Part shown: piece by piece, positions 1,640 to 43,836 of the stretch
How the letters are laid out: each line of letters starts with the position of its first letter
How positions within the stretch are numbered: position 1 is the stretch's first letter
Assembly: GCA_024276275.1 (NCBI GenBank)
Contig: JAJRXM010000006.1
Location: forward strand, 12,907 to 76,906
Length of the DNA stretch: 64,000 nucleotides
Direction of reading: 5' to 3'
Source: Candidatus Zixiibacteriota bacterium
Lineage (GTDB): Bacteria > Zixibacteria > MSB-5A5 > GN15 > FEB-12
Notes under the pieces: generated by a model
What the model was told of the DNA's origin: nothing
Database searches by the model: none
Seen by the model: the letters and a program-made list of their open reading frames with translations, nothing else
Made by a program: the position numbers and the translations under genes

Positions 1640-1666
1640 GTATCGGTCATTATAAATGTTTCTTGA
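1640..1666 (-). promoter_or_regulatory. Putative sigma28 (FliA/WhiG-type) promoter for the nadE-like/ACP/ligase cluster
   Basis: Minus strand reads TCAAG-N14-ACCGATAC. Confidence 0.65.
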
Positions 1667-1677
1667 TTTGAGAACAA

Positions 1678-2487
1678 TTAAAAAATCAACTCATTTGCAA
1701 GAGGAGAATATGCTACAAACAGCTTGATTTTTCTATTCTCTCCGGTGCCGGAAAAGCCTTTTATCTTCAGTAAGGCATTTTTATTATCTGCTGTTTTCAG
1801 CTGTATCCAGTCATTTTTAACAACCTGCAATTTATCTTCTGAAGCTGTTTTTGTATACTTTTTTATTCTCTTTCTCAAGTCATTAAATTCACCTTTAAAA
1901 GCTAATTTCACCAGTTTATTGACTCTTAAAAAACCGTCTAATTTATGAGGAGAGGCAATATAATCAACACCGTTTTTTGAATAGAAATACAGGTCATTTG
2001 CCACATTATCGGCTCTGACATAACTATTTTTATCAAAAGAATAACCGTCTTTTTCAGATTTATATCTTATAGATAGTTCGATATTTTCTCTTGGGCCACA
2101 GACCGCCACAACTTCATCTGACCTCTTTGATTCAGTTTGACCGGGGTTTACAATCGCAACAGAGACATAATATTTTTTACCGTTTTCAAGATGATCAGCT
2201 TGGTAATTTTCGATACCGTCTTCAGGATTTGTATCACCGTCAAACGGTGTTTGATTAAACGGTTTATCATCAGAATTTTGGTTTTCAGAAATATAGATAT
2301 TGTATCCTGCAATAGTTTTTTCACAGCCGTTCACCCAACTAACATTCATCATCTTGTCATTGACTTCAACACGAACATTTGATACAGCACAATCTACTTG
2401 TTCGACTACATTTGGTTTAGGTGGCGGACAACCAAATAAGAGAAGTCCTGATAAGATAGAGCTTATGGCTAGTAATTTTTTATTCAT
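1678..2487 (-). CDS. Lipoprotein with fibronectin type III-like domain
   Basis: Lipobox LLFGC; FN3-like pattern (VSW, GYNIY, LENGKKYYVSV). Confidence 0.7.
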   Translation of the reverse strand: MNKKLLAISSILSGLLLFGCPPPKPNVVEQVDCAVSNVRVEVNDKMMNVSWVNGCEKTIAGYNIYISENQNSDDKPFNQTPFDGDTNPEDGIENYQADHLENGKKYYVSVAIVNPGQTESKRSDEVVAVCGPRENIELSIRYKSEKDGYSFDKNSYVRADNVANDLYFYSKNGVDYIASPHKLDGFLRVNKLVKLAFKGEFNDLRKRIKKYTKTASEDKLQVVKNDWIQLKTADNKNALLKIKGFSGTGENRKIKLFVAYSPLANELIF

Positions 2488-2494
2488 AAAACGA

Positions 2495-3652
2495 TTAACT
2501 CCGTTTGTCTGGGGCAGAGAAACTCTCCGCCGTTTTTGTTATGACAATATCTTCCTCAAGTCCGACACAACCGATACCCGGAAGTAAAATTTCTAATTCA
2601 AGTGTAAATACATTGTTTTCTTCTAAAGGAATAGAAGTTGACTGACCGTACCTTTCCCATTTAGGTCCGATAAGTGCCGCTCCATCATGAACATCTCTTC
2701 CCAGTTGATGCCCTAAGGCATGTTCATAAGCATTATATCCGTTATCAGCTAAAATTTTTCTGGCTTCGGCATCAATTTCAAAGCCTTTTACACCCGGTTT
2801 ACATATTTTTGAAGTCGTTGTAATAATATCGACAACTGTTTGAAATGCATCTAAAAGCTCAGGTGGTGCTTCGTTTTCATTCGGTCGTTTAAAATATGCT
2901 AATCGTTGAATATCAGAGCAGAACTCTTTATACTTTATACCAAAATCAACATGTAAAAGATCCCCACCGGTTAAAGTAGCTTTGGTAGGTAGAGAATGTC
3001 CGGGCTTTGTCTTATCACCTGCATTTACAATAGTTGGGAAAGATAGTTTATTTTTCCCTGATAAAATATAATAATTAATAACTGCCGCAACCTGCTCCTC
3101 AGACATACCGTTTCTAATATCCTCAACTGTCTTCTTCCAGACATCGTCTGCTAATTCAGCAGCTATTCTAAGGTTTTCTATCTCCAGAGGTAGTTTTCTG
3201 CTTCTTAGTTTTGCAAGAAGATTATCAGAAGAAACTAACCTTTCTACGAACGGTGTGTTTGACAGATATTTTTGTAATAACAAATACATGCCGTGTGATA
3301 AACCGTCAGCAGCAACATTGTCGGTTGAGTAATTGATAGCTATTTTTTTTGGGTTTAATTTTTTTAGGATTTTTTGAATTTCCTCAGATGCATCGGCTGT
3401 ATACGATTTCACTTCTGAAAAACAGCCCGACCTTATAAACTTTTCCTGATCACAATTACCGACTAAAGCAATTGCATCTTTTTGTCTGGTGTAGATGAAA
3501 AATGACTGCCAGGTAACATCATGTCCGACAACTAAAGGCATCGACGGGTCAGGTGCCATAGTGCTTTCACGGACAAAGATAATCCAGCAATCAAGAGTCA
3601 GCTCATCCAGAATCTGAAATGTCTGAGCAATTTTGTCTTTTAACAGGTTCAT
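2495..3652 (-). CDS. Xaa-Pro aminopeptidase (M24 family); probable frameshift near the 3' end
   Basis: HVDFG, SDIQR, HALGHQLGRDVHD, TLELE and LEEDIV metal-ligand motifs. Likely start MNLLKDK at 3652. Confidence 0.9.
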   Translation of the reverse strand: MNLLKDKIAQTFQILDELTLDCWIIFVRESTMAPDPSMPLVVGHDVTWQSFFIYTRQKDAIALVGNCDQEKFIRSGCFSEVKSYTADASEEIQKILKKLNPKKIAINYSTDNVAADGLSHGMYLLLQKYLSNTPFVERLVSSDNLLAKLRSRKLPLEIENLRIAAELADDVWKKTVEDIRNGMSEEQVAAVINYYILSGKNKLSFPTIVNAGDKTKPGHSLPTKATLTGGDLLHVDFGIKYKEFCSDIQRLAYFKRPNENEAPPELLDAFQTVVDIITTTSKICKPGVKGFEIDAEARKILADNGYNAYEHALGHQLGRDVHDGAALIGPKWERYGQSTSIPLEENNVFTLELEILLPGIGCVGLEEDIVITKTAESFSAPDKRS

Positions 3653-3716
3653 AAGAAGTGATAATACTTTAAAAAAGATGCTGAAACAAGGTCTTTTTCT
3701 GTCTCTGTTGTACCTC

Positions 3717-4490: not shown

Positions 4491-4547
4491 TTTATAAATC
4501 CTTACGTGTTTCTATTTTCATTATCTTATTATTCACATTTTTCTCTA

Positions 4548-4574
4548 TAAATCTACTTAAAAATTTGCCGATAA
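4548..4574 (+). promoter_or_regulatory. Putative sigma28 promoter for the hemerythrin gene
   Basis: Exact consensus TAAA-N15-GCCGATAA, 41 bp before the ATG. Confidence 0.8.
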
Positions 4575-4615
4575 TTAATATAAATGCTGGATAGTAATAT
4601 AGTTAAAGGGAACAA

Positions 4616-6489: not shown

Positions 6490-6535
6490 AGGTGTAGTAT
6501 AGTATAAAACTGTTTAATTGACAACTCTGAGACAT

Positions 6536-6568: not shown

Positions 6569-6605
6569 ATAAAATTTTAGATGTAAGACAAGGAGTACGT
6601 GTGTG

Positions 6606-9403: not shown

Positions 9404-11089
9404 TTAGGCGTTTTGCGTAACGGGTAAAGTTGCCGAGTTGTTTTGAGGAATATATTTATTCAATTCTACCATAAATGTAGTACCTTCTCCCATTTGAGAG
9501 CTAATACTGATCGAGAGGTTTTGTGCTGAGCAAATTCTATGTACTATAGCTAACCCAAGTCCGGTACCTTCTTTTTTAGTAGAATAAAAGGGCTGGTATA
9601 TATGCTTCAGATGATGACTTTCAATTCCCGGGCCGTTATCTTGAATATACAATTCTACAATATCAGTAGAATCATGGACTGCTAATCTGAAAGTTAATTC
9701 ACCGCCTTTCTCCCCCATTGCTTCACAAGCATTCATAGCTAAGTTCAAGAGAAGCTGCTTGAAAAGGCTTTCATCCCCAATTACATACATCATCGATTCA
9801 TCTGATTCTATATTTATTTTAATACCGGAATGAAAAGACTTATGGTGATATAGTATCTCGATTACTTCCGATATAAGATGCAGAAGTTCTACTTTATTAT
9901 ATGACGGTCTATCTATTCTGGCATAAACTAAAAACTCGTTTAAAATATGGGACAACCTATCGGATTCTTTCACAATCAAAGACATAAGTTTAGCGTTTTC
10001 TTCAGATACATCTAGCTCGCTTTTTAGCACTTCAACCGAACCGGAAATAGCAGCTAATGGGTTTCGAATTTCATGAGCAATAGATGCTGACAGTTCTCCG
10101 ACAGCTGCCAGTTGGTCTGACATCCGTACTTTTTCCTCCAGCACTTTAGCATCAGTTAAATCCGAAAAAATTGCTATCACCCCACGAATCTGATTATTTT
10201 TTTCGGTTAAAACCGATGTAGATAACCCGACCGGTTTGCTTTGATTTTTATTATTAACAACAAATATTTCTTTTCTCGGATATGCAACATGGTTTTGAAT
10301 CCCCTGCATTAATATCTCAGCAAGGTCCGGCATTCTCTCGGAGAAAACTGTTGTGCAGGCAACTCCTTTTATATTTTCCTCTTTATAGTCCAGAATTCTT
10401 TCAGCTGCTTTGTTGAAATAAATTATTGCTCCGGTACTATCTATAGATAAAAGTCCTGAGTTTAAATGCTTTAAAATATCATCGGTCTCCAGTTTAGCTT
10501 TTTGCAATGCTAATGAAGCATCGGCAAGTTCTATATCTCTTTTTCGCAATCTTTCCGCCAAGTAACCCGAGATAAATGCTATCAGATAAAAAATAAGTAT
10601 ATGCATGAAAATCGGATAGAATATTGAATCACCGACAGAAAAAATTGTTTGTAGTGATTTCATAGAGAGATGCTGTACATTGTCTCCCCCAAACCCAAAC
10701 CAGATAATTAGTGCATAGGCTGCTGAAACAGTTGATGCTAAGAGTAAAGTACCGATTAGTCTAAAGACTAAAGAAGCTGAAATAATTGTTAAAATTAAGA
10801 GTATAGAATATTGAGAGTTGATATTTCCGGTAGTATATATAATACTTGATTCAATAAAAATTTCTAGAATAAATTGACAGCCGATTAAAAAGGATGTCAG
10901 GTTTTGTAAATTGTGACGTTTGTCCGTTGCTAGAAGAATTGAAAATCCAAGCGTTGCTATTGAATACAGTACAAATTGAAAATGCATAAAGTCGGGGAAT
11001 TCCATCGAGACACCGACAATAGCTGTCAATATTATATATTGTGCTAGTCGAAACGGAAGAAATAAGTTTTGTACTTTTAAGGTATTCAT
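9404..11089 (-). CDS. pilS: PilS-like membrane sensor histidine kinase (TM-PAS-HisKA-HATPase)
   Basis: TM region with TGNINSQYS, PAS domain, AHEIRNPL H-box, N/G1/F/G2 boxes; follows pilC. Confidence 0.8.
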   Translation of the reverse strand: MNTLKVQNLFLPFRLAQYIILTAIVGVSMEFPDFMHFQFVLYSIATLGFSILLATDKRHNLQNLTSFLIGCQFILEIFIESSIIYTTGNINSQYSILLILTIISASLVFRLIGTLLLASTVSAAYALIIWFGFGGDNVQHLSMKSLQTIFSVGDSIFYPIFMHILIFYLIAFISGYLAERLRKRDIELADASLALQKAKLETDDILKHLNSGLLSIDSTGAIIYFNKAAERILDYKEENIKGVACTTVFSERMPDLAEILMQGIQNHVAYPRKEIFVVNNKNQSKPVGLSTSVLTEKNNQIRGVIAIFSDLTDAKVLEEKVRMSDQLAAVGELSASIAHEIRNPLAAISGSVEVLKSELDVSEENAKLMSLIVKESDRLSHILNEFLVYARIDRPSYNKVELLHLISEVIEILYHHKSFHSGIKINIESDESMMYVIGDESLFKQLLLNLAMNACEAMGEKGGELTFRLAVHDSTDIVELYIQDNGPGIESHHLKHIYQPFYSTKKEGTGLGLAIVHRICSAQNLSISISSQMGEGTTFMVELNKYIPQNNSATLPVTQNA

Positions 11090-11150: not shown

Positions 11151-12347
11151 TTATATTTTTCCAATAATATCAAACATTGGAAGATACATAGCTATCAAGA
11201 TACCACCGATAACAACACCCATGAACACAATAATAATCGGTTCAATAACTGATGTTAAGGCAGTCACTGCTTCATCTACTTCTTCGTCGTAGAAGTCAGC
11301 AATTTTGTTAAGCATTTCATCAAGCCCACCTGTTTTTTCACCTACGGCAATCATCTGAGTTACCATTGGAGGGAATACCCCGGTTTCTTTTAACGGAGCA
11401 GTAATAGTATCACCCTCGGCAATAGCAAGAACCGATTTGTTAATAGCATTTGCTATTACCAAGTTACCCGCTGTTTTCGCAGTAATTTCCAGAGCTTCTA
11501 AAATTGATACACCTGAAGCCAACAGAGTACCGAGAGTTCTTGTAAACCGGGCAACAGATGACTTTCTTACTAACGTACCGATAACCGGCATGTGCAGTAA
11601 GATTTTATCCCACATCAAAGCACCTTGAGGTGTTTTTTTCCACCATATAAACAACGCTCCTAAACCGATTCCACCCAAAGTGAGATACATCATATTATCT
11701 TGTAAGAAATTCGATATTATTAAAACGACTTGTGTAGGCATCGGAAGCTCAGCATTCAAACCTCCAAACATCTTTGCAAATACAGGTACAATAAAGGCTA
11801 ACATACCGATAGTTACACCGGCGGCAACGACAACAATAACAGCCGGGTAAATCATGGCACCCTTTACTTTTCGAATCAATTGATCAGCTTTTTCACGATA
11901 GACAGCTAGTCTGTTTAGAATAGCATCTAAAGCACCACCGACTTCACCCGCTTCAACCATGTTGGTATATAATGTATCAAAAATTTTCGGATGACGAGCC
12001 AATGCTTCTGATAAAGTTGCACCGCCTTGTACTGAATCTTTTACTTGCACAACGATTTTTGCCAGTTCTTTATTTTCCATCTGAGAAGATAGAATATCTA
12101 AACATTGTACCATCGGTAAACCTGCACCGATCATAGTAGCAAATTGTCTTGTAAATCTTGATACATCAAGCCTTGCAACACCAGTACCGAATTTAATTTC
12201 GATATTAGCAGCTTTTTTTGATATAGATTTTACAATAATTCTATTCTGTCTGAGAATCCGCTCTAGGTCAGCTTTATTATCTGCTTTAATTTCGCCTGAA
12301 ACAGCAGCTCCTGCGAGAGTTTTTCCTTTATATTCAAATACCGGCAC
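11151..12347 (-). CDS. pilC: Type IV pilus platform protein PilC (T2SS F family)
   Basis: FTRQFATMIGAG, MVEAGEVGGALD, VGEKTGGLD, EPIII...MYLPMF. Confidence 0.95.
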   Translation of the reverse strand: MPVFEYKGKTLAGAAVSGEIKADNKADLERILRQNRIIVKSISKKAANIEIKFGTGVARLDVSRFTRQFATMIGAGLPMVQCLDILSSQMENKELAKIVVQVKDSVQGGATLSEALARHPKIFDTLYTNMVEAGEVGGALDAILNRLAVYREKADQLIRKVKGAMIYPAVIVVVAAGVTIGMLAFIVPVFAKMFGGLNAELPMPTQVVLIISNFLQDNMMYLTLGGIGLGALFIWWKKTPQGALMWDKILLHMPVIGTLVRKSSVARFTRTLGTLLASGVSILEALEITAKTAGNLVIANAINKSVLAIAEGDTITAPLKETGVFPPMVTQMIAVGEKTGGLDEMLNKIADFYDEEVDEAVTALTSVIEPIIIVFMGVVIGGILIAMYLPMFDIIGKI

Positions 12348-12373
12348 AGCTTATTCCTTTCCTTAAACTTTCT

Positions 12374-13450
12374 TTAGAAAGCAGGTGCTTTCTGATGTTT
12401 AGACATCATCTCACCCAATTCCTGTGCATTATGACTATAGTTCATCGCGTCATTTATTGTTATTTTATTATTTGTATATGATTCAAGTAATGATTGATTC
12501 ATTGTTCTCATACCGTATTTTTGTCCACCTTGCAGCATTGAATAAATTTGGTGTACTTTGTCATCACGAATTAAAGCACGAATAGCCGGAGTTACGACCA
12601 TTATCTCCATAGCCATCACACGTCCGCCACCTATTTTGGGAATCAAGGTTTGAGAAATTATCGCTTGTAAACTAAATGAAAGTGAAACGCGTATCTGTGC
12701 TTGTTGGTTAGCCGGAAAAGCATCGATAATTCTGTTGATAGATTCTGCTGCCGAGTTTGTATGCAAGGTTGCAAATGCCAAGTGACCTGTTTCGGCAATT
12801 GACAAGGCTGATTCAATTGTTTCTAAATCCCTCATCTCACCAATTAGGACTACATCGGGGTCTTCGCGAAGTGCGTACTTTAATGCCGATGCAAATGAAG
12901 GTGTATCTGAAAATACCTCGCGTTGATTTATGATAGCGGTTTGATGCCTGTGCAGATACTCAATAGGGTCCTCAACAGTAATAATATGAACCGGACGTTC
13001 ACGATTTACTTTATCAATAATTGATGCAAGCGTAGTTGATTTACCAGAGCCTGTCGGTCCTGTTACTAATACTAATCCACGTGGTAGCTTTGAAAGGTCT
13101 GCAATTACTTTAGGCAGGCCTAACTCTTCAAATGACTTTATCTCGTACGGAATCTGCCTGATAGCAATAGCCATGTTCCCTCGTTGCATAAACACATTAC
13201 AGCGAAAGCGACTCATTTGTTCAATACCAAAAGAGAAATCTAATTCTGAATTCTGTTCAAATTTCAGTTTTTGTTTTTCATTTAACATTGAATAACCAAT
13301 TTTTTTTGTTTGGTCAGATGTTAGAGCATCAAAATTTAACCGTTGTAACTTCCCGTCTACTCTTACAACAGGAGGGATACCTACTGTAATATGCAAATCA
13401 GAGGCGTTCATTTTAACCATTAATTCAAGTAATTCACGTAAAGAAACCAT
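12374..13450 (-). CDS. pilT: Type IV pilus retraction ATPase PilT
   Basis: GPTGSGKSTT, ALREDPD, TLHTNSA, AIRALIRD (AIRNLIRE-type motif), GMRTM. Confidence 0.97.
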   Translation of the reverse strand: MVSLRELLELMVKMNASDLHITVGIPPVVRVDGKLQRLNFDALTSDQTKKIGYSMLNEKQKLKFEQNSELDFSFGIEQMSRFRCNVFMQRGNMAIAIRQIPYEIKSFEELGLPKVIADLSKLPRGLVLVTGPTGSGKSTTLASIIDKVNRERPVHIITVEDPIEYLHRHQTAIINQREVFSDTPSFASALKYALREDPDVVLIGEMRDLETIESALSIAETGHLAFATLHTNSAAESINRIIDAFPANQQAQIRVSLSFSLQAIISQTLIPKIGGGRVMAMEIMVVTPAIRALIRDDKVHQIYSMLQGGQKYGMRTMNQSLLESYTNNKITINDAMNYSHNAQELGEMMSKHQKAPAF

Positions 13451-13505
13451 ACTTATATCTCCAGATAGATTTATAGTCGTAAGTAAAATTTGTATTTCTC
13501 TACTA

Positions 13506-13532
13506 TTATCGGTAAAAAAGCCGAATTCTTGA
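13506..13532 (-). promoter_or_regulatory. Putative sigma28 promoter for pilT-pilC
   Basis: Minus strand reads TCAAG-N14-ACCGATAA in the pilB-pilT gap. Confidence 0.7.
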
Positions 13533-13595
13533 AAGAAAAATAGACGTTTTTTGAATGATAAGTGGTTGAAAGACAGTTAATTTAGAATAGTGCAG

Positions 13596-15296
13596 CTAAC
13601 TTGAGACAGAAGTTGTAGAAACGACTTCCTCAAGTGCAACATCGCCGTTTTTCATTTTCTCAACAGCGCACATACGTAAAGAGAACATACCCTCACTTAA
13701 AGCACATTTACGTATATCAGAATCAGGTGCTTTTTTAAGTATCAAATGTTCGATATCGCTGGAAATAGGCATTACTTCATAAATACCGGTACGCCCCGCT
13801 TTTCCGGTTTGATTGCAGTCAGAACAGCCTTTCCCCTTAAATGCTCGAATTCCTTTTAATACATCATCCGGTACTTTAAGGTTTTTTACCTGTTCTTCAG
13901 TAAGATTTATTTCTTCTTTGCAGTTTTTACAAATCTTTTTCATCATTCTCTGAGCCATAATAAGTTTTGTGGCAGATGCAACCAGATAAAAAGGAACATC
14001 CATATCAATCAGACGATTTATAGACGATGGAGCATCGTTGGTATGTAGAGTCGAGAAAACTAAGTGACCTGTAAGAGCAGCACGAATAGCAATCTCGGCA
14101 GTTTCACCGTCACGAATCTCACCGACCATGATTACATCAGGATCCTGACGAAGGAACGATCTTAAGGCAGCTGCGAAAGTCATACCGATTTCCGATTTCA
14201 CCGCAACCTGATTGATTCCATCAAAGTTAAACTCAACAGGATCTTCCGCAGTCATAATATTAATATCAATAGTATTGATTTGCTTTAATGCCGAATACAA
14301 TGTTGTAGTTTTACCCGAACCGGTTGGCCCTGTTACTAAGATTATTCCGTAAGGTAAATGTATTTTATCTTCAAACTTTTTTAAATCTTCTTTTCTGAAC
14401 CCCAGTATAGTCATATCGACCATGAGTGCCATCGGGTCTAAAATACGCATTACGACTTTTTCACCGAAGATTGTAGGAAGAACAGAGACACGCAAATCAA
14501 CAGTACGCCCTGAAATTTTAATTTTAATACGTCCATCCTGCGGTAATCGTCGTTCGGAGATATCAAGTTCTGACATGATTTTAATACGAGAAACTATGGC
14601 AGCTCGGTATTTAAACGGAAGAGGTGCCATCTCACGAAGTTCCCCATCAATTCTGTAACGCACTCGAATACGTTTCTCATACATTTCAAAGTGAATATCA
14701 GATGCGCCCATACGAATAGCATCAGAAATAATTGAGTCAACTAATTTAACAAGAGGTTTATCTTGAATTTGCGAAAGTAAATCAGATTCAGACGGACCGT
14801 CATCTTCTGAAACAACTTCTAAATCAGAATCTTCTTCAAGCCCTTTCACTATTTCAGATAATGCTCCTGCGTCGACATAATAAGTATCAATTGCCTTTTC
14901 AATAGCTTTCTCGGGAGAGATAACCGGTTGAACAGTACAGCCGGTAATAAATTTAATCGCATCTAAAACATAGATGTTATTAGGGTCAGAAATAGCGACT
15001 AATAAATTTTTATTTAATTTAGTAATTGCAATTACTTTAAATTTACGGGCAATATCAAGAGGGATAAGTTTAACTACAGAGGGATTGAGTTCAATATCGT
15101 TGAGACGTAATGTACCGATTTTAAGGTTTTTTCCAACTAACTTTGCAATTTCATCCTGCGATGCAATAGCACCGATACTAACTAAGGCATCCTGAAAGTT
15201 TTCTTTATTCTTCGTAGCATGTGCTTTAGCTTTTTCAGCTTGTTCTGTTGTTATTTTACCGGCTTGCACCAGCATGGTGCTTAAATCTGATGACAT
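13596..15296 (-). CDS. pilB: Type IV pilus extension ATPase PilB
   Basis: ERRLPQDGRI, GPTGSGKTTT, LRQDPD, tetracysteine motif CKNC/CSDC. Confidence 0.95.
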   Translation of the reverse strand: MSSDLSTMLVQAGKITTEQAEKAKAHATKNKENFQDALVSIGAIASQDEIAKLVGKNLKIGTLRLNDIELNPSVVKLIPLDIARKFKVIAITKLNKNLLVAISDPNNIYVLDAIKFITGCTVQPVISPEKAIEKAIDTYYVDAGALSEIVKGLEEDSDLEVVSEDDGPSESDLLSQIQDKPLVKLVDSIISDAIRMGASDIHFEMYEKRIRVRYRIDGELREMAPLPFKYRAAIVSRIKIMSELDISERRLPQDGRIKIKISGRTVDLRVSVLPTIFGEKVVMRILDPMALMVDMTILGFRKEDLKKFEDKIHLPYGIILVTGPTGSGKTTTLYSALKQINTIDINIMTAEDPVEFNFDGINQVAVKSEIGMTFAAALRSFLRQDPDVIMVGEIRDGETAEIAIRAALTGHLVFSTLHTNDAPSSINRLIDMDVPFYLVASATKLIMAQRMMKKICKNCKEEINLTEEQVKNLKVPDDVLKGIRAFKGKGCSDCNQTGKAGRTGIYEVMPISSDIEHLILKKAPDSDIRKCALSEGMFSLRMCAVEKMKNGDVALEEVVSTTSVSS

Positions 15297-15339
15297 TACT
15301 TACATTCTCTTTTTTATATTTTTACAACTGTCTTTTAAG

Positions 15340-15828
15340 TTAATCCTGAAAAATATCATCAAGTTTATCTTCTGCTTGAGCAGCAAAATCTGAATCAATT
15401 CCGGATTGTTTATCCCGATCAGAATTTTGAATATCTGTAAAAACTTTTCTGAGTTCGGCACTAGTTTCTTTTGCATACAAACGTACCATACCGATTGTAG
15501 TTCTGTCATCAAAGATTACAACTAGAATTGACCTTTCTCCAACAATAGACATGTGGATATGATCTTTTTTTCCCTGATGAAACAAAACAGAGAACTCGGG
15601 TTCGCCGACTAATTTGGCAATTTCTTTTGTTGAAGCAAATGACCCTGCCAACAAAGCTGCCAAGGCAGTTGTATCTAATGAGTGCGTAAATCCCTGACGA
15701 GTTATCAGATGTCCGTCTTTATCAACTAAAAGAGCACATTTTGCTTCAGCACCTTTTAACATTTTTGAAATCAACGCATCAATCTTGTTAATCTCTTCTT
15801 CGTAGAAAATTAAATTATCTTCAGCCAT
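15340..15828 (-). CDS. mglB: MglB roadblock/LC7 GTPase-activating protein
   Basis: Closely resembles Myxococcus MglB (YEEE..KI, LVDKDG, DTTALAAL.AG, VVIFD.RT..G.VRL) including the acidic C-terminal helix DDIF. Confidence 0.9.
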   Translation of the reverse strand: MAEDNLIFYEEEINKIDALISKMLKGAEAKCALLVDKDGHLITRQGFTHSLDTTALAALLAGSFASTKEIAKLVGEPEFSVLFHQGKKDHIHMSIVGERSILVVIFDDRTTIGMVRLYAKETSAELRKVFTDIQNSDRDKQSGIDSDFAAQAEDKLDDIFQD

Positions 15829-15845
15829 TTTGACCTCCGTGAGGA

Positions 15846-16832
15846 CTATTTTAAACCGAACAATCTTTTAAAGAATCCTCGTTTTTTCTCCTTACGTGTT
15901 TTCATAGAAGGAGCCATCGAGGGAACATGCACTGATGTATCATCGGCATTATTCTTCGCAGGTTGTTCAATATTTTTTACTTGTTGAGTAGAAGCACCGT
16001 CAGTCGCTGATTGTTGCGATTGGGATGGTTCCGTTTTAACTTGTTTTATTTTTTGAGACATACTTCCCGGATACGGTCTGTGTTGTTCGTCAACATCAGA
16101 AACCGCAGTTGCGGTAGCCGAGGAAACAGGTTGCATCGGTTCATTTGGTTGTTGTAAGACCGGAGGAACTGAATCTTGTATACCTTGTTGAGCAGGTTGT
16201 ACATCATCCGGTTGTTCAAGTACAACAGCTTTCTTAGCAGCAGGTGAAGCAGTATCTTTTGCTTTGTTCAAAACAATTTTGATAATACCTTTTAGAGTAT
16301 CAAAGACTCCGTTACCAACTGTAGCAGATGCGACAAAGAATGGACGTCCTTTAGGGTTCAATTGTGGATTTAGTTGCTCAGGTCCTAAGACACCCGGTAA
16401 ATCACATTTGTTATATTGAATCACAAAAGGGAGCTCATCTATATCATATCCGTATTCAACGAGGTTATCTTCTAAGTTAGAAAGAGATTCAATATTTTCA
16501 TCCATTTTATCAGGTTGACTATCAGCCACAAATACAACACCGTCAACACCACGTAAAACTAATTTACGTGTAGCATTATAATACACCTGTCCCGGAACAG
16601 TATAGAGTTGAAATTTTGCCGCAAATCCATTTATAGAACCGATATTTATCGGCAGGAAGTCAAAATACAACGTTCGGTCAGCTTCAGTCGCCAGCGAAAT
16701 CATTTTTCCGCGAGTATTAGACGGTACTTTGGAATGTACATAGAGCAAGTTTGTGGTCTTGCCTGACAAACCGGGACCGTAATACACAATTTTGCAACAA
16801 ACTTCTCTTGATGAATAGTTTATCGATACCAT
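15846..16832 (-). CDS. mglA: MglA small Ras-like GTPase with ~135-aa C-terminal extension
   Basis: KIVYYGPGLSGKTTNL, DRTLYFDFLP, YTVPGQVYY, NKCD; tail ends KKRGFFKRLFGLK. Confidence 0.92.
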   Translation of the reverse strand: MVSINYSSREVCCKIVYYGPGLSGKTTNLLYVHSKVPSNTRGKMISLATEADRTLYFDFLPINIGSINGFAAKFQLYTVPGQVYYNATRKLVLRGVDGVVFVADSQPDKMDENIESLSNLEDNLVEYGYDIDELPFVIQYNKCDLPGVLGPEQLNPQLNPKGRPFFVASATVGNGVFDTLKGIIKIVLNKAKDTASPAAKKAVVLEQPDDVQPAQQGIQDSVPPVLQQPNEPMQPVSSATATAVSDVDEQHRPYPGSMSQKIKQVKTEPSQSQQSATDGASTQQVKNIEQPAKNNADDTSVHVPSMAPSMKTRKEKKRGFFKRLFGLK

Positions 16833-16847
16833 AGTGATATTCCTGTT

Positions 16848-17189
16848 TTATGCATTCACTTTTAACTTACTGATTGCATTTTTAATCTCTAATCGGATCA
16901 ATCCGATATTAACCGATTTTTCGGTTGTAACGACTAATATCCCTAAGCCGGCATCAGTAAAAAACAACTTACCTTCATCCGCTTCAATAGTAACTTGTTT
17001 GAGCGGTGTAGTTTTTAATCTATCCAAAGATTTTTGGATGTTTGCGGTTATTGATGCCGCCAAAGCACCAATAGTATCGCCTTCAAATGATTCATCGAGA
17101 TCAGCGGCAATAACAATACCGTCGTGTCCGACAACCATAGAACCGGTAATACCGGTTGTTTTGTTTAGTTCATTTAATACATCATACAT
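16848..17189 (-). CDS. Stand-alone roadblock/LC7 protein (MglB/MglC-like)
   Basis: GITGSMVVGHDGIVIAA...GALAA...NIGLIRLEI. Start MYDVL at 17189 after GGAGAG, overlapping the upstream stop. Confidence 0.85.
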   Translation of the reverse strand: MYDVLNELNKTTGITGSMVVGHDGIVIAADLDESFEGDTIGALAASITANIQKSLDRLKTTPLKQVTIEADEGKLFFTDAGLGILVVTTEKSVNIGLIRLEIKNAISKLKVNA

Positions 17190-18168
17190 ATATTCTCTCC
17201 GCGTTCCCGATAAGTTTTTCATCATATCGTTCTGCTGTATAGATTCTTATCATTTCAAGAGCCTGGTTAATACGTATATTTAAAATGTCATCCATGGAAC
17301 GTTCCGAGATGACAACCAAGGTATAATAGTTTTCAGATGCGATAATCAATCTTTGATTTTCAAACATCATATCAGTTTTTTCAGGTACAGTCAGTTGCAT
17401 TTTATGTAATGTCATTTTGTTTTGTTCAACAATCGGTAACACCAACGGTGCAATATCTTCCGCCTCAAACATTGCTCTTTGATAACTTGACAACAACAGA
17501 CCTTCATAGTCAACAACTGCCGCCATTAGTACGGTACCGTTTTCACCGATATAATTCACCGCTTTCTGAAATCCGATTTCATTTACCGAACTCTTTTGTG
17601 ACGACCTAAACGGTTGGGATTCAGAAAGTTGCGAAGTAACTTGAGGTTGTTCTTTGTTGATGTTTTCTTTTGTAACAACAAACGATGACGCACCTGCTAA
17701 ATGGCTTTTATCAACAGTTGGCTCATTGAGAGATGCCGCAGGTTTCGGAGTAGTCGCGTAGAATTTTTTTTGAGCGATAAATATCGGTTTTAAAATAAAA
17801 GGTGTCGCTAAAACATGTGAACCGACTGCCGGCCAGAAAGATGATGTTCCAAACGATATAGTAACACCTAGATTCATGTCATACATTAAGGCAATCAATC
17901 CTCCCAACATAACACCCAAAACATATCGAGCGACAAAACAAATAGTAGCATTTGTAAACAATCTTGCTAAAGTCGTCTCTTTGTTAAAGAAGAAGAGACA
18001 AAAACCGTAAAATACTATTTCCAATGCTATGGTAGTAAAAGAGGCATTCACCATAGATGACTGCATTAATTTTGTACCCAATAATACAGGGAACAATACC
18101 ATCGGTATAATTAATACAAACAACGCAAACAAAACCATTTGTCTTATAATACGTCCATCAATTTCCAT
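17182..18168 (-). CDS. Membrane protein (about 4 TM) with C-terminal roadblock/LC7 domain
   Basis: Hydrophobic N-terminal ~130 aa, S/P/Q-rich linker, then VLMAAVVDYEGLLLS roadblock-like motif. Confidence 0.7.
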   Translation of the reverse strand: MEIDGRIIRQMVLFALFVLIIPMVLFPVLLGTKLMQSSMVNASFTTIALEIVFYGFCLFFFNKETTLARLFTNATICFVARYVLGVMLGGLIALMYDMNLGVTISFGTSSFWPAVGSHVLATPFILKPIFIAQKKFYATTPKPAASLNEPTVDKSHLAGASSFVVTKENINKEQPQVTSQLSESQPFRSSQKSSVNEIGFQKAVNYIGENGTVLMAAVVDYEGLLLSSYQRAMFEAEDIAPLVLPIVEQNKMTLHKMQLTVPEKTDMMFENQRLIIASENYYTLVVISERSMDDILNIRINQALEMIRIYTAERYDEKLIGNAERIYV

Positions 18169-18186
18169 ACTTTATCCTTCAACTAT

Positions 18187-19086
18187 TTACCGGTACATAC
18201 CGAGTAAACTTTCAATTTTCATTCGTAAACTACCGAGGTTCGATTTTTCACCTGCGACAAAAACAAATAGTCCGATATCAACCCGTTGTACATAGTAGGT
18301 ATATCCGGTTGCTTCAATCAAAACAGTTTTAAAGTTCCCAAAAGATGATTCCATCAATTCCTGAGAAAGAAGTAAACTTAAGTCGCCGAGTGTAGCCCCA
18401 CAAAGTTCTACCTCGGTTTTGAGTGTCCACTCAGACTCTAAGACCAGTCCTTCTTTGTTGACTAAAAAGAGTCCGTCAACACCAACAATTTTGATTCCTT
18501 GTTCAATAACATCTTGTGCTGAAAGCTCTGTTTTTTCAACTACAGGTTGTGCAATAACAGGTGTTGGTATTTCAGCTTTTTCAAATTCCTTACTTGTCGT
18601 CATAATAGTTTTTTCTTCGCTTGCATTACTATTATAATTTTCAGTCTGAATTAGCACCTTCTGTTCTTCAGGTATTTTTTTGGCAATATCTAAAAGTCTA
18701 TTTATTTGGGTATTATACGGGTCAGCGTTATGTAGTTTTTTCAACAATTTAATTGCTGTTTGAAATTCCCCCCGATAGATATAAATTTCAGATAACAACA
18801 ACTCAATAGTTCTACTTTTGCCGTCAATTTCGGCAGCTTTTTTCGCTTCAACCATAGCCCAATCATATAGACCTCTATCAAGGTTGATTTTAGCCATAAC
18901 AACGTGAGCAGCTCCGTAAGACGGATGTATTTTTAACCCGCTTTGACAGACCCGAAAAGCGTTATCAAAATCGCCTTTTTTTCGGTAAGCATCTGCTAAT
19001 GCGGCAAAAATCTGCGAATTAGGATCAACATCAAGAATCTTCCGACATTTATCAATCCGCTCATCTATTTCAATAGAACTTATCAT
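18187..19086 (-). CDS. TPR-repeat protein with C-terminal roadblock/LC7 domain
   Basis: DPNSQIFAALADAYRKKG TPRs; GVDGLFLVNKEGLVL...NLGSLRMKI roadblock pattern. Confidence 0.8.
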   Translation of the reverse strand: MISSIEIDERIDKCRKILDVDPNSQIFAALADAYRKKGDFDNAFRVCQSGLKIHPSYGAAHVVMAKINLDRGLYDWAMVEAKKAAEIDGKSRTIELLLSEIYIYRGEFQTAIKLLKKLHNADPYNTQINRLLDIAKKIPEEQKVLIQTENYNSNASEEKTIMTTSKEFEKAEIPTPVIAQPVVEKTELSAQDVIEQGIKIVGVDGLFLVNKEGLVLESEWTLKTEVELCGATLGDLSLLLSQELMESSFGNFKTVLIEATGYTYYVQRVDIGLFVFVAGEKSNLGSLRMKIESLLGMYR

Positions 19087-19147
19087 ATATCTTATAACTG
19101 TTTTCCAATTAAAACGTTACGAAAATCTCATATTTCTCTAAAGGGTA

Positions 19148-19176
19148 AATATATACCATATAAAAACTTATGTCAA
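19148..19176 (-). promoter_or_regulatory. Putative sigma70 promoter internal to the mgl cluster
   Basis: TTGACA-N17-TATATT upstream of the TPR-roadblock gene. Confidence 0.55.
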
Positions 19177-19189
19177 CTTTATAATACTA

Positions 19190-19546
19190 TTATTCCAAAG
19201 TCTTTTTTGTCTCAAATACTCCAAACATAAACAAACCGAGTGCTAATAGTAAAAGAGCCGGAACGGCAAAAGAAGGCAACATAAAAATCTCAAAATCGTG
19301 CAGTAAATTTGCAAGTTGAGAAATCATGAGTACAGCAAAAGCTGAAAGAAAGATTTGCCAACTTTTAAAAAGTAGCCCTCCTCGAAGAAGAGACAATATC
19401 TTTACACTTCCGACCAAACAACCAAGTCCTACTAATAAAAGAACAGCACTTAACATTGTTGGAGGTTGAGTAATTACCGCAAAATTGGCAGCATGTGCAT
19501 CAGCACCAAGCAATAATAAACTAAATAGAACATAATTTTTTTTCAT
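19190..19546 (-). CDS. Small membrane protein (signal peptide plus about 3 TM)
   Basis: AHA-A cleavage-like site and three hydrophobic segments; starts 1 bp after the DUF4388 stop. Confidence 0.75.
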   Translation of the reverse strand: MKKNYVLFSLLLLGADAHAANFAVITQPPTMLSAVLLLVGLGCLVGSVKILSLLRGGLLFKSWQIFLSAFAVLMISQLANLLHDFEIFMLPSFAVPALLLLALGLFMFGVFETKKTLE

Positions 19547-19547
19547 T

Positions 19548-20753
19548 TTATCCTCGAACCATTTTTATGACTTTATCGGCACGTTTAATTGATTTATAAA
19601 AGTTTTCGTCTATTGCATATCGTTTTACTAGTTCTCTCCGAAAAGCGATAGGTTCAGCTATCTCTTTTTTCACTTTACTCACCGCATGATGATAAACCCC
19701 GTCACCCAATAGTTGAAAGACAAATTCCAATTGTTCCGACAGCATTGATTCAAGACCGGACATTAATTTATGATATCTGTTTTCTTTCGGAAGTGCATGT
19801 ACAGCCTCGATAAATTTATCTAGTTTAGGTCCAAGTTCAGAATTTGGATCGGTTCCGGGAAAGTATGCAAAAATTGAGCTCCTGTATTGCGAGACAAAGT
19901 CGTTAAAGCGTCTGTTTTCCATCCCCAAAATAGAGTCTACCGAATTTCTAATACGGTAAAAGCAGTTATTATACAGATTAAAAATTATCCCTAAGACAAC
20001 CTCTTCCTCATTTACTTTTATCTCTTCTTGGGCACTTTCAACTTTTCCGTTTGATTCAATCAGCTTGCTTAATATAAGTTTATAAACTGCCCGACAAGTT
20101 ACAAATTCACCTAATGGAGAGATACTCATTAAATCGGTCAAGGTTCTTTCACCGTTTATAAGTGTAACAACTCGGTACTCTTCCATACTAAAACGAACTT
20201 CTTCATTTTTAGTTTTTGGAGATGTTGCCAAGGCTAAACGAACATCATCGGGAGGGAGAACTTTTTGAATTTCAAGCCACTCATCAATACGACGAGTACC
20301 TTCCATAACAACATTCATCGTACTCAACTCTATCAGAAAAGGAGCATTTTTAGGTTTGCTACCTTCGTGAAAATAGAAATCACCCTCCTGCCAAGAAAAG
20401 AGATTATAGACGACCTCTTCAATTTGCAGTTTTAAACATTCGGCAATTTCTTCTTTATCAAAAAGATTCATATCAATAAGTGTAGTGCCTAATTGACGTC
20501 CGGTTTGTTTGTGCAACGTAATAGCTCTGTTGAGATCCTCTTTGGTTATTCTTCCACGATGTAGAAGCATATTCCCAAGTAAATCTTCAGAGGCGTTTAC
20601 TGATGAGGCATAAATGATATTTCCGTTCTTAAAGGAAACTTCTTTTTGTCTCGTAGAGGTCTTCAGCTCCAGAATACCGGTCTTTTTACCGGTTGCCAAT
20701 AGTTGTAAAATGTCTGGAAAAGATACTGTTTTTAAATTGCCCGCTAAACTCAT
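19548..20753 (-). CDS. DUF4388 (PatA_N-like) domain protein with internal MshEN-like repeat
   Basis: MSLAGNLKTVSFPDILQLL...KKTGIL, LFSWQEGDFYF, MEGTRRIDEW. Confidence 0.85.
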   Translation of the reverse strand: MSLAGNLKTVSFPDILQLLATGKKTGILELKTSTRQKEVSFKNGNIIYASSVNASEDLLGNMLLHRGRITKEDLNRAITLHKQTGRQLGTTLIDMNLFDKEEIAECLKLQIEEVVYNLFSWQEGDFYFHEGSKPKNAPFLIELSTMNVVMEGTRRIDEWLEIQKVLPPDDVRLALATSPKTKNEEVRFSMEEYRVVTLINGERTLTDLMSISPLGEFVTCRAVYKLILSKLIESNGKVESAQEEIKVNEEEVVLGIIFNLYNNCFYRIRNSVDSILGMENRRFNDFVSQYRSSIFAYFPGTDPNSELGPKLDKFIEAVHALPKENRYHKLMSGLESMLSEQLEFVFQLLGDGVYHHAVSKVKKEIAEPIAFRRELVKRYAIDENFYKSIKRADKVIKMVRG

Positions 20754-20811
20754 ATTATGCCCTCAAATGCATTAAATAGCGTTTTTATTCACTATGGATA
20801 TTTCTTAATAT

Positions 20812-20839
20812 ATATCGGGAAAAAAGAAGGATTTCTTAA
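20812..20839 (-). promoter_or_regulatory. Putative sigma28 promoter heading the DUF4388-mgl-pil cluster
   Basis: Minus strand reads TAAG-N15-CCCGATAT. Confidence 0.6.
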
Positions 20840-20872
20840 TTAATAAAGAAGAAAAAGAATAGTATTGTTGTC

Positions 20873-28951: not shown

Positions 28952-29464
28952 CTACAACTTTATCCCTTTTTGAAGGGACTTAAATTCAGCTTTTAATAGC
29001 TCATCCCGACTGAGGTTTAAGTCAACCGTTTTATCTTTAGGAATAGAAGGACAGTCAATTGTAGAATAGAGAGCTTGATTACTTTTCGGTTTAATATAGC
29101 CAACCTGTATTGACATATTTTTCATATAGGAATCAAGCAGTTGTCTATAGGCAGTACCTTTTCTTAAAGAATCTGAATAAGATGTAAACGAGACAACAAA
29201 GTGAGGATTTGAAGATAAGACTTGAACAGTTTTAATTTGTTCATCTACTAATTTCGTTTGCAAAAATTCAAGCAATGAGAAGAAAGTAGAAAACTCCATC
29301 GTAAGAGCATTCCCCTCACCGATACAGCGAAAGATAACTCCCAGGTTTGGAATAGCAAAAGATATCAATCCATTAGCTACCCCATGTTTTTGCAAAACTA
29401 AATCTTGTTTTGGATATGTAAAAGAAGCAATAAAACACTTTGTAATTTTGTTTTGTTTGGTCAT
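28952..29464 (-). CDS. Hypothetical protein, degenerate RNase HI-like fold
   Basis: Pattern G.ISF.IP..G...T.EF...LEF...V.V.SS....V...GYI....NQA parallels RNase HI but lacks most catalytic Asp residues. Confidence 0.55.
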   Translation of the reverse strand: MTKQNKITKCFIASFTYPKQDLVLQKHGVANGLISFAIPNLGVIFRCIGEGNALTMEFSTFFSLLEFLQTKLVDEQIKTVQVLSSNPHFVVSFTSYSDSLRKGTAYRQLLDSYMKNMSIQVGYIKPKSNQALYSTIDCPSIPKDKTVDLNLSRDELLKAEFKSLQKGIKL

Positions 29465-29477
29465 AGAGATATATAAA

Positions 29478-29492
29478 GCAATCTATATGCCA
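29478..29492 (-). promoter_or_regulatory. Putative sigma54 -24/-12 promoter
   Basis: Minus strand reads (T)TGGCAT-ATAGA-TTGC(T); IHF-like TTTCAACAAGTTA at 29521-29533. Confidence 0.75.
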
Positions 29493-36002: not shown

Positions 36003-36005
36003 GCC

Positions 36006-38900: not shown

Positions 38901-38915
38901 TCATCATATATAAGT

Positions 38916-41198: not shown

Positions 41199-41240
41199 TT
41201 TTTTCCTTATAATCTTTCGCAGATAAATCTACTTGTCGTG

Positions 41241-41468
41241 TTATACCGAATCAGGTCTGGTAAACTTCACATTTCCTGCTAATAAATCCCGAAGTGCACA
41301 CATGGTCATCTTACGTGATTCAATTTCTAAGTCCGGGTTTTCTTCCATTTGCTCAAGAGTTTTGAGTCTCAAGTTATTTAAATGTCTTGCGTGTTGTGAT
41401 GCTACAATTATAGCCTCATAACGATTTAGTCCAAATTTTTCAAATTCTTCAATTGGTAGAGAATGCAT
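41241..41468 (-). CDS. rpoZ: RNA polymerase omega subunit
   Basis: NRYEAIIVASQHARHL; follows gmk. Confidence 0.8.
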   Translation of the reverse strand: MHSLPIEEFEKFGLNRYEAIIVASQHARHLNNLRLKTLEQMEENPDLEIESRKMTMCALRDLLAGNVKFTRPDSV

Positions 41469-41492
41469 ACTGCCTCCAGTGATTTATTATAT

Positions 41493-42113: not shown

Positions 42114-42116
42114 CTA

Positions 42117-42992
42117 TTATTCAATATTCTGTACTTGTTCACGTAATTTTTCGATCTCTTCTTTCATTTGAATAACTGTAGATGAGATAGAAATATCAGA
42201 ACATTTAGATGCTATCGTATTTACTTCACGGTTTAGTTCTTGTAAGATAAAATTCATTTTTTTTCCAACCGGATTTTTATCTTCCAATGCCGACTTATAT
42301 TGTTTCAAGTGCGAATATGTACGGATGCACTCTTCGGCAATATCAGTTCTTTCGGCTAAAATTGCAATCTCTTCTTCAATGCGAACTGAGTTATCATGTG
42401 AGTCTTTTAATATATCTTGCAGTTTCTGAGTTACTTTTTCACGTCGACTGTTTACACACTGTGCCGAGAGTTTCTCTATTTCTTTGATGTTTGTAGAAAG
42501 TATCTTGAGTCTCTTTTTCATGTCATTCTTTAACTCTTGTCCCTCTTTTTTACGCATCACTATTAATTCTGCCAATGCTTTCCGAAGAGTCTTTTCTAAT
42601 GCTGCCCAGATTGCTTTTTCATCAAAAGTAGCAGTTTCCGGTTTGGTGATTTCAGGAATTAAAAGAAGGTCATGTATTGTAATCTCGGATGTAATCTTCA
42701 ATTCTTTTTTCAATTTAGTCAACTGATTAAAAAGTACTTTTGACAAATCTTTATTTATATAATTTTTTGATGAATCATCAATTTTTTCTTCAAATGAAAT
42801 ATATAGATTTATTTTCCCTCTGCTGATCATTTGGGAAATAACATCTTTAATTTTAGGGTCAAACCCAAAAAATGATCTTGGTGTTCTGGGAGATATTTCA
42901 AGGTATCTGTTATTTACAGAAGAAATTTCTACTCTTATTTTACCTAATTTTGTCTTTAATTCCGCTTTACCAAATCCGGTCATCGAATTCAT
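42117..42992 (-). CDS. yicC: YicC/YloC family endoribonuclease
   Basis: SMTGFG, SVNNRYLE, QELNREVNTIASK, LREQVQNIE. Confidence 0.95.
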   Translation of the reverse strand: MNSMTGFGKAELKTKLGKIRVEISSVNNRYLEISPRTPRSFFGFDPKIKDVISQMISRGKINLYISFEEKIDDSSKNYINKDLSKVLFNQLTKLKKELKITSEITIHDLLLIPEITKPETATFDEKAIWAALEKTLRKALAELIVMRKKEGQELKNDMKKRLKILSTNIKEIEKLSAQCVNSRREKVTQKLQDILKDSHDNSVRIEEEIAILAERTDIAEECIRTYSHLKQYKSALEDKNPVGKKMNFILQELNREVNTIASKCSDISISSTVIQMKEEIEKLREQVQNIE

Positions 42993-43052
42993 ATATTGTT
43001 ATCCTCAATTAATAGGCTGAAAAATAGAAATAAACGGCGAATTGTCAACAAA

Positions 43053-43772
43053 TTATTCAGTTTCGCTCAATTTAACCTTTGTTTTTGTATAAATTCTTGA
43101 TTTTAGAGGGTCAATCATCACCCCGACAGGAGTTTTATGATAAACAGGGGTTGATATATGAGACATACGGTGAGTACTTTTTTGAATCCGAAGAGCTGAT
43201 TTTTGAATTGTTTTAATCTTTTTTATCAAATCTTTATCAATTCCCAACTGATCATCCAGAATAAGTTCTGTAATACCCAAAATAGTCATAAGTGGATTAT
43301 TAATTTCATGTGAAAGAGTTCTGGATGTCAACTTTAGAAGTTCCGATTGCTTACTGTTCCTTTTTGATGACTGTACTTCTCTAGACTTAACCTCTCGAGA
43401 TAAAACTTCTTTTAGAAGCTGTGGTACTACGACATAAAAAGTCTCGTTCTTTTGTAATAATTCAGTTACTCCAATCTCAAGCATTTCCTTTGAGAATTTA
43501 TCGGAAGTATCGTCCACAAATGCAATTATCGGCATATCAGTGTTAGCAAAGTGAAGGTGATGAACATTACAAATATCTTCTTGTTCGCTAGAATTAATAT
43601 CAACTAATACAGCTTGTATTAATTCTGAAGCTATAACTTTGATTGCCTCTGATTTAGTTTGTACAGAAATTATATTATACTCAGGTAATCGTAACTGTAT
43701 CTCTTTTATTAGCAATAATTCATGAAAGTTATTTTGAACAAATAAGAGAATGTTTATTTTTTTTATTTTCAT
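43053..43772 (-). CDS. Atypical receiver domain plus HisKA (DHp) protein without HATPase domain
   Basis: REC-like N-terminus (VLVD), then LSHEINNPLMTILG; protein ends without N/G boxes. Confidence 0.75.
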   Translation of the reverse strand: MKIKKINILLFVQNNFHELLLIKEIQLRLPEYNIISVQTKSEAIKVIASELIQAVLVDINSSEQEDICNVHHLHFANTDMPIIAFVDDTSDKFSKEMLEIGVTELLQKNETFYVVVPQLLKEVLSREVKSREVQSSKRNSKQSELLKLTSRTLSHEINNPLMTILGITELILDDQLGIDKDLIKKIKTIQKSALRIQKSTHRMSHISTPVYHKTPVGVMIDPLKSRIYTKTKVKLSETE

Positions 43773-43809
43773 AATTCTGAGCCATATAAATATATGTATT
43801 CTATATATA

Positions 43810-43836
43810 GTATCGGCCGAGTACGCACGAACTACA
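43810..43836 (-). promoter_or_regulatory. Possible sigma28 promoter for the REC-HisKA gene
   Basis: Minus strand reads TGTAG-N14-GCCGATAC (good -10, weak -35). Confidence 0.5.

Follow-up and report, generated by a model that had tools for sequence, protein, structure and literature searches.

The consensus classically read by the sigma factor FliA/SigD (sigma28) in enterobacteria and Bacillus is TAAA-N15-GCCGATAA. According to the reports cited here, this reading has been widened well beyond the flagellum in other bacteria. In Bdellovibrio bacteriovorus, where the sigma28 consensus TAAA-N15-GCCGATAA is given as the FliA binding site, 92 of the 140 attack-phase promoters that were mapped carry TTAAG-N16-CCGATA; the motif was ascribed to FliA, which in the view of the authors became a global regulator in this organism (PMC3627812). 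The Bdellovibrio Tad pilus operon responded to FliA in an Escherichia coli reporter, and attempts to delete fliA failed (PMC5430801). For Actinomycetota, the regulons predicted in 2026 for sigma factors of the WhiG family comprise chemotaxis, type IV pilus synthesis, enzymes of cyclic di-GMP (c-di-GMP), response regulators and the gene of the sigma factor itself (PMC13595943). The present analysis concerns a window of 64,000 nucleotides (nt), G000:C42:12907-76906, which is the whole stretch of DNA analysed, from the 3.39-Mb genome (100 contigs, 36% G+C) of a Candidatus Zixiibacteriota bacterium. Within it, five sites resembling sigma28 promoters precede the genes for a tandem hemerythrin, NadE, PilT, a DUF4388 protein and a HisKA-domain protein. 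From sequence comparison, we put at about 78% the probability that these five sites serve as promoters for an RNA polymerase equipped with the genome's single FliA/WhiG-type sigma factor. The regulon would thus be a further case of an already known type, the expanded sigma28 regulon; its host phylum is uncultured, and its predicted conserved targets include the motor of the type IVa pilus and a Roadblock/GTPase operon.

To our knowledge, Zixibacteria are known solely from metagenome-assembled genomes, and gene regulation in this phylum is a blank. Among the literature matches listed (titles and beginnings of abstracts), those on Zixibacteria held nothing on promoters or sigma28, and those on FliA, sigma28, type IV pili, regulons and Bdellovibrio held no work on Zixibacteria.

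The FliA regulon of Bdellovibrio is the closest precedent, with a near-identical consensus and a flagellar sigma factor extended to many non-flagellar genes, among them those for chemotaxis, surface proteins, proteases and regulators. The scale of about a hundred promoters is likewise shared: 91 correctly oriented sites were counted here at a matrix score of at least 14 bits, most of them before non-flagellar genes. The pilus targets differ, being the type IVa genes pilT and pilD, pilins and the DUF4388/Roadblock module in Zixibacteria and the Tad operon in Bdellovibrio; and whereas start sites and expression were measured in Bdellovibrio, the Zixibacteria regulon is computed from the genome of an uncultured organism. 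The Actinomycetota work resembles ours in using an intergenic consensus search and in the types of target it returned, but it deals with a different phylum, in which many WhiG2 proteins are held by the c-di-GMP-armed anti-sigma factor RsiG and occur without flagella. The Zixibacteria factor, unlike WhiG2, is encoded in a flagellar cluster, and a search for the anti-sigma factor FlgM (PF04316) gave no match at E ≤ 0.01. With classical FliA/SigD, it shares the consensus, predicted targets among the chemoreceptor, cheW, cheY-like and probably motA genes, and the location of fliA in a flagellar cluster; unlike there, no sigma28 site was found before the flagellins, and most predicted targets are non-flagellar. 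A further point of reference is the MglA/MglB polarity module, which controls type IV pili in Myxococcus, Thermus and Bdellovibrio. As in that module, Roadblock/LC7 and small-GTPase-like genes adjoin pilB-pilT-pilC, here together with TPR and DUF4388 genes. Unlike it, the GTPase-like protein is 328 amino acids (aa) long and scores below the Pfam cut-offs, the Roadblock genes are two, and a polarity function would be a predicted one.

The evidence begins with the motif class. Dinucleotide-preserving shuffles predict 21.3 copies of the hexamer CCGATA in the window, which has 77 (3.6-fold); genome-wide the hexamer ranks second among 180 hexamers of the same composition, with 3426 copies against a median of 1077. 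This count alone was rejected as evidence, since the hexamer is equally dense in genes (0.44 per kb on the coding sense strand and 0.61 on the antisense strand, against 0.53 upstream of genes in the correct orientation) and its counts depend strongly on codon phase, 1474 of 1808 TATCGG copies lying in one phase and 1237 of 1294 CCGATA copies in two. The abundance of CCGATA comes from coding bias, and the argument must therefore rest on the two-part motif, TAAA/TnAAG-N15-nCCGATA. Among the 168 correctly oriented upstream copies of CCGATA, T stands at -20 in 63% and A at -19 to -17 in 45–52%; the corresponding values for the 3102 coding copies are 31% and 27–34%. With at most one mismatch to TAAA-N15-GCCGATAA, 20 sites face a gene and 3 face away from one (in 425 and 454 kb of intergenic DNA, respectively); the ratio is 83:45 at two mismatches and 209:157 at three.

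A position weight matrix (PWM) trained on half of the contigs and tested on the other half found, with a threshold of 14 bits, 56 gene-facing sites against 6 in the opposite orientation, and with one of 12 bits, 107 against 30. A second matrix was trained without C42, the contig that carries the window, on 110 sites; in it, T, A, A and A at -20 to -17 reach 94, 50, 77 and 76%, and each position of CCGATA 89–99%. Applied to the genome, it returned 91 gene-facing sites, 7 facing away, 86 in coding-sense and 36 in coding-antisense orientation at 14 bits or more, the corresponding numbers being 20, 0, 1 and 0 at 18 bits or more. Shuffled intergenic DNA held 3.1 sites (sd 1.9, 30 shuffles) against 82 observed, a control with some circularity, since the matrix had learned from those regions. 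The 91 sites lie at a median distance of 57 nt from the start codon, and 69 of them within 100 nt. The two-part motif is a real, genome-wide and orientation-biased class.

All five motifs are read at the positions where they had been placed; each lies in intergenic DNA and has the orientation of the gene that follows. Measured from the first C of CCGATA, their distances to the start codon are 48 (hemerythrin), 79 (nadE), 62 (pilT), 65 (DUF4388) and 44 nt (HisKA). Scored with the matrix trained without their own contig, they reach 20.4 (hemerythrin), 19.5 (pilT), 15.6 (nadE), 14.4 (HisKA) and 8.8 bits (DUF4388). The hemerythrin site is a perfect consensus and, in a scan of the genome, the sole perfect match with a spacer of 15 in gene-facing intergenic DNA.

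Conservation was assessed by searching for T[ACT]A[AG]-N15-17-CCGATA within 160–200 nt upstream of orthologs in 30 relatives of the same order. The motif precedes 23 of 26 pilT orthologs (70–92% identity), with 0/26 for the reverse complement, 2/258 for coding windows and 10/5200 for shuffles; in these orthologs, TCAAG and CCGATA are constant and the spacer sequence is variable. For DUF4388 it lies 56–79 nt ahead of the start codon, both in the relatives (24 of 27; reverse complement 0; coding windows 0/270; shuffles 21/5400) and in public Zixibacteria genome records (44 of 46 loci; reverse complement 0; coding windows 3/460; shuffles 35/9200). The nadE motif is kept in 11 of 18 orthologs (reverse complement 2/18; coding windows 0/180; shuffles 14/3600). 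Both hemerythrin orthologs carry the motif (2/2); they are of the same genus and 54–57% identical, and when a wider set was sought, orthologs were present in just 2 of the 30 relatives at E ≤ 1e-25. The HisKA gene has two orthologs in the same genus; both keep the -10, and one keeps TGTA at -35. Overall, the controls gave 0–2 loci per set for the reverse complement, 0–3 of 180–460 for coding windows and less than 0.5% for shuffles, and for pilT and DUF4388 they stayed under 1%. In the ortholog alignments, the boxes and their spacing are constant and the letters of the spacer vary freely; the pilT motif and that of the DUF4388/Roadblock operon are conserved through the order and the phylum. Judged by score and conservation, the putative hemerythrin and pilT promoters are well supported; so is the candidate before DUF4388, by its deep conservation, and the one before nadE, whose score is joined by partial conservation. 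For HisKA, the site is weak though plausible.

The genome also holds a candidate sigma factor for such sites. As the original prediction supposed, a gene of the FliA/WhiG family is present, the sole one found (G000:C45:86810-87694; TIGR02479 262.9 bits, cut-off 189.6); on NF004935 it scores 289 bits, below the cut-off of 343. It stands in the order flhA-flhF-flhG-fliA, with a MinD-like flhG. By sequence, its best solved relatives are 6pfv and 6pfj, deposited as "RNA polymerase sigma factor", and the FliA chains 9wsm, 6pmi and 1rp3. A second sigma factor, on contig C66, was the only other strong family match; it was considered as a rival sigma28 and rejected as RpoD-like. Of 31 relatives, 29 have a FliA that passes the cut-off, as do 149 of the 151 phylum members sampled, a frequency that is compatible with an indispensable fliA but is no test of it.

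The five sites had been read as parts of a regulon covering pili, an Mgl module and sensors rather than flagellar genes. The first half of this claim draws support from the motif class, the conserved pilT and DUF4388 sites and the sigma gene; the exclusion of flagellar genes was an effect of where the window ends, as a full flagellar set is present, beginning about 3.5 kb past that end on C42 and with further genes on C45. Candidate sigma28-type sites precede motA, at what is likely its true start (13.8 bits), and, immediately upstream, fliA itself (17.2 bits, with a spacer one base shorter). Given these two sites and the chemotaxis targets described below, the regulon is better called expanded than non-flagellar.

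Several observations weigh against FliA as the reader of the five sites. First, a search for sequencing runs over positions 12300-21000 of the window listed none, and what ties FliA to the sites is solely their likeness to the known sigma28 consensus. Second come the flagellar genes: the 725-aa flagellin (C42:83316-85493) has no sigma28 site of at least 10.5 bits and no sigma54 match of at least 9/11 positions; the flgB operon has a perfect sigma54-type TGGCAC-N5-TTGCT (11/11 positions, C42:107841, minus strand); the 256-aa flagellin has a sigma54-type match at 10/11 positions (C37:63085, minus strand); and no flagellar structural gene is among the 80 best first genes. The simple scan for sigma54-type sites that gave these matches returned 33 gene-facing sites in the genome against 15 facing away. 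The search for FlgM, a short and divergent protein, came back empty in a genome that is 95% complete. Third, individual sites have their own weaknesses: that before DUF4388 scores 8.8 bits and shows an extra C and a downstream AAGAA that the sigma28 model leaves unaccounted for, and conservation of the HisKA site is restricted to the genus. Fourth, the weight matrix was trained on the host genome itself; the relatives are kin, so that the conservation counts overstate the number of independent events; and the genes are crude calls of the longest open reading frame (ORF; 2912 ORFs), some start codons and coding/intergenic labels being wrong. Given such calls, some of the "coding-sense" motif sites are probably true promoters.

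Part of these observations would be met if the motif class were real but read by another sigma factor, or by a DNA-binding regulator with a sigma28-like site. The sigma54-type promoters of flagellin and flgB, which leave the usual late flagellar role of sigma28 not evident, the link of FliA to the sites by likeness, and several extracytoplasmic-function (ECF)-like sigma matches in the genome are in keeping with this. We nevertheless hold it to be improbable, because the geometry, sequence and start-codon distance of the sites are those of sigma28 promoters, with a consensus close to those of Bdellovibrio and WhiG, the FliA/WhiG-family gene is single, and chemotaxis genes, the classical targets, carry the motif. 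That FliA is the reader, as well as the start sites, the operon extents and the co-expression set out below, is what we infer from these comparisons.

The site before the DUF4388 gene merits separate consideration: it fails the weight matrix, yet it is the most deeply conserved of the five. Its score is low mainly because of a C at -1, which is absent from the 110 training sites; at the DUF4388 loci the sequence is almost always CCCGATA, the C before CCGATA being nearly invariant. We also observed a conserved A-rich block, approximately AAGAA(A/T), 8–12 nt after the -10 (20795-20811 of the window, minus strand), which is kept across Zixibacteria. The whole block, TTAAG-N15-CCCGATAA plus AAGAA, might then be mainly an operator or a leader-RNA element whose likeness to sigma28 promoters is secondary. 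The near-invariant C in the 44 motif-bearing loci, the A-rich block and a conservation exceeding that of typical promoters speak for this, but spacing and both boxes fit the sigma28 class, the spacer varies freely, no Rfam family matched at its gathering score anywhere in the window, and an additional operator or start-site motif would be compatible with a sigma28 promoter alongside. An element in which the promoter is secondary thus seems to us very unlikely. Equally hard to credit is that chance produced some or all of the five matches, in a genome with an unusual wealth of CCGATA and of AT-rich -35-like words: this could appeal to the codon-driven 3.6-fold excess of CCGATA in the window, to a gene-facing excess of just 1.3–1.8-fold at two to three mismatches, to the 86 coding-sense sites at 14 bits or more, to the 8.8 bits of the DUF4388 site and to the HisKA (14.4) and nadE (15.6) sites lying in a score class with about 7 wrongly oriented sites against 91, but at 18 bits or more, where the hemerythrin and pilT sites lie, there is no wrongly oriented intergenic site and one coding site, the motif stands before 23 of 26 pilT and 44 of 46 DUF4388 orthologs with controls under 1%, and the cross-validated enrichment is about ninefold.

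Returning to FliA as the preferred reader, the genes from DUF4388 to pilB (13596..20753, minus strand) probably form one operon, as judged from their common strand and short gaps (Table 1). In it, Roadblock genes stand on both sides of the GTPase-like ORF, and pilB-pilT-pilC and a PilS-like kinase follow the module immediately downstream. Relatives retain the gene order from DUF4388 through pilT, with pilB adjoining pilT and the DUF4388 and pilT matches on one contig. Calling this an Mgl module was apt as regards the two Roadblock/MglB-like proteins, both above their cut-off, and is less secure for the GTPase-like protein, which falls just short of the Arf and Ras cut-offs of Pfam.

Table 1. 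Features discussed in the text. Positions are those of the window unless a contig (C42, C45) is given.
Feature	Position	Strand	Details
Putative nadE promoter	1640..1666	-	-35 TCAA(G) 1666-1663; -10 ACCGATAC 1647-1640; TTG start 1567
NAD(+) synthase NadE	599..1567	-	NF002048 446.7 bits, cut-off 313
AMP-forming acyl-CoA ligase	C42:11669-13222		next gene downstream of nadE
Putative hemerythrin promoter	4548..4574	+	-35 TAAA 4548-4551; N15; -10 GCCGATAA 4567-4574; ATG 4616
Tandem bacteriohemerythrin, 284 aa	4616..5470	+	Pfam Hemerythrin; NCBIfam bacteriohemerythrin at residues 3-137 and 152-274
PilS-like histidine kinase	9404-11089	-	Pfam 6TM_PilS, PAS, HisKA, HATPase_c
pilC	11151-12347	-	Pfam T2SSF
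pilT	12374-13450	-	Pfam T2SSE
Putative pilT promoter	13506..13532	-	-35 TCAA(G) 13532-13529; -10 ACCGATAA 13513-13506
pilB	13596-15296	-	Pfam
Roadblock/LC7 (MglB-like)	15340-15828	-	51.2 bits, cut-off 23
GTPase-like, 328 aa	15846-16832	-	Arf 20.9 bits (cut-off 22.3); Ras 18.0 bits (cut-off 21.6)
Roadblock/LC7 (MglB-like)	16848-17225	-	50.7 bits, cut-off 23
328-aa ORF	between TPR gene and Roadblock 16848-17225	-	
TPR protein	18187-19086	-	Pfam
118-aa ORF	between DUF4388 and TPR genes	-	
DUF4388	19548-20753	-	Pfam
Putative DUF4388 operon promoter	20812..20839	-	TTAAG 20839-20835; -10 CCCGATAT 20819-20812
HisKA-domain protein, 239 aa	43053..43772	-	Pfam HisKA E 5.9e-8
Weakest candidate promoter, HisKA gene	43810..43836	-	TGTA(G) 43836-43833; -10 GCCGATAC 43817-43810
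Flagellar cluster	C42 80-113 kb		fliS, fliD, 725-aa flagellin, fliW, flgL, csrA, flgK
Flagellar cluster, continued	C42 80-113 kb		flgI/H/A/G/F, fliJ/I/H/G/F/E, flgC/B, motAB, cheB
FlgR/FlgS-like pair	C42 80-113 kb		adjoins motAB
Flagellar genes	C45		flgD, flgE, fliL-R, flhB/A/F

Pfam annotation of the genome-wide targets covered the genes that immediately follow the 80 best sites, from a set of 88 with a site of at least 14.3 bits; 15 of these 80 first genes are without a Pfam family. Chemotaxis and signalling are represented by four methyl-accepting chemotaxis proteins (MCPs), CheW, four single-domain (CheY-like) receivers, two HDOD proteins, one GGDEF-GAF protein and several sensor kinases. 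The pilus targets are pilT, the prepilin peptidase gene (pilD), two pilin-like proteins and a second DUF4388 protein, of the DUF4388-MshEN type. Two hemerythrins, sugar-nucleotide genes, polysaccharide-export genes and housekeeping genes (SecA, Lon, ClpP, signal peptidase, nadE) were also found. Finally, rpoN and three sigma54 activators carry the sigma28-type motif. The site before rpoN (C31:42940-44343) lies at C31:44407 on the minus strand, 64 nt from the ATG, scores 16.8 bits and is kept in 19 of 30 relatives, against 0 for the reverse complement.

In the mechanism that we propose, FliA would recognise T(A/T/C)AA(G) at -35 and nCCGATA(A/T) at -10, 15–16 nt apart, and transcription would begin a few bases past the -10, with leaders of about 30–65 nt as a result. 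One promoter would serve the operon from DUF4388 to the Roadblock genes, perhaps reading into pilB, and a separate one pilT and perhaps pilC. The predicted regulon would comprise about 60–90 promoters: those of chemotaxis genes (MCPs, CheW, CheY-like proteins, probably motA and fliA itself), of pilT, pilD and pilins, of the DUF4388/Roadblock/GTPase-like polarity operon, of hemerythrins, of c-di-GMP and two-component genes, of rpoN with the three sigma54 activators, and of some genes with housekeeping roles, nadE among them. Pilus retraction would thus be switched on jointly with polarity control, hemerythrins and chemotaxis.

The site before rpoN suggests an unusual order of sigma factors. Since rpoN and three activators carry sigma28-type sites, while rod and flagellin genes appear to use sigma54, FliA may stand above sigma54, which would invert the usual hierarchy of sigma54 followed by sigma28. 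Going one step further, FliA could act throughout the Zixibacteria as master regulator of a motile or dispersal state, from above sigma54 and not as a late flagellar factor; we advance this tentatively, as a proposal that has the odds somewhat against it. If it were true, the pilus motor, the Roadblock/GTPase operon, the hemerythrins and the signalling genes would be transcribed directly by the FliA polymerase.

Several implications follow for the phylum. The sites provide a first regulon map for Zixibacteria, drawn from a clear and conserved promoter class, and the map predicts a joint switching-on of swimming-related chemotaxis, pilus movement, cell polarity and oxygen-binding proteins. It would also be a second, independent case, after Bdellovibrio, of a flagellar sigma factor becoming a broad regulator of lifestyle. 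In practice, the motif could be used for annotating promoters and operon starts in Zixibacteria assemblies.

Two other gene assignments of the original prediction are to be amended. The genes behind the nadE promoter had been described as a surface-modification cluster, a description that we reject: by NCBIfam annotation, they encode a true NAD(+) synthase and then an acyl-CoA ligase of the AMP-forming type. The gene behind the weakest candidate had been called REC-HisKA; the HisKA domain is there, but Pfam showed no REC domain at E ≤ 1e-5, and no NCBIfam family matched the protein. More distant matches to it (at most 36% identity, at 8 of 10 loci of relatives) were judged to be paralogs and left uncounted as conservation.

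In the neighbourhood of nadE, a perfect TAAA-N15-GCCGATAA was also noted at 2005-2032 (minus strand), on the coding sense strand of an fn3-domain ORF (1678-2487). It lies about 445 nt upstream of the nadE start, scores 13.3 bits and is one of 4 perfect coding-sense matches in the genome; it may be an internal promoter or a chance match. Elsewhere in the window, a sigma54-type match, TGGCATATAGATTGCT (10/11 positions, 29477-29492, minus strand), lies 28 nt upstream of the ORF 28952-29464, whose 170-aa product matched no Pfam family. Outside the window but on the same contig (G000:C42:999-4353), we found gatD (509.8 bits, cut-off 324) and gatE (489 bits, cut-off 456), which encode an archaeal-type Glu-tRNA(Gln) amidotransferase; GatDE is regarded as typical of archaea.

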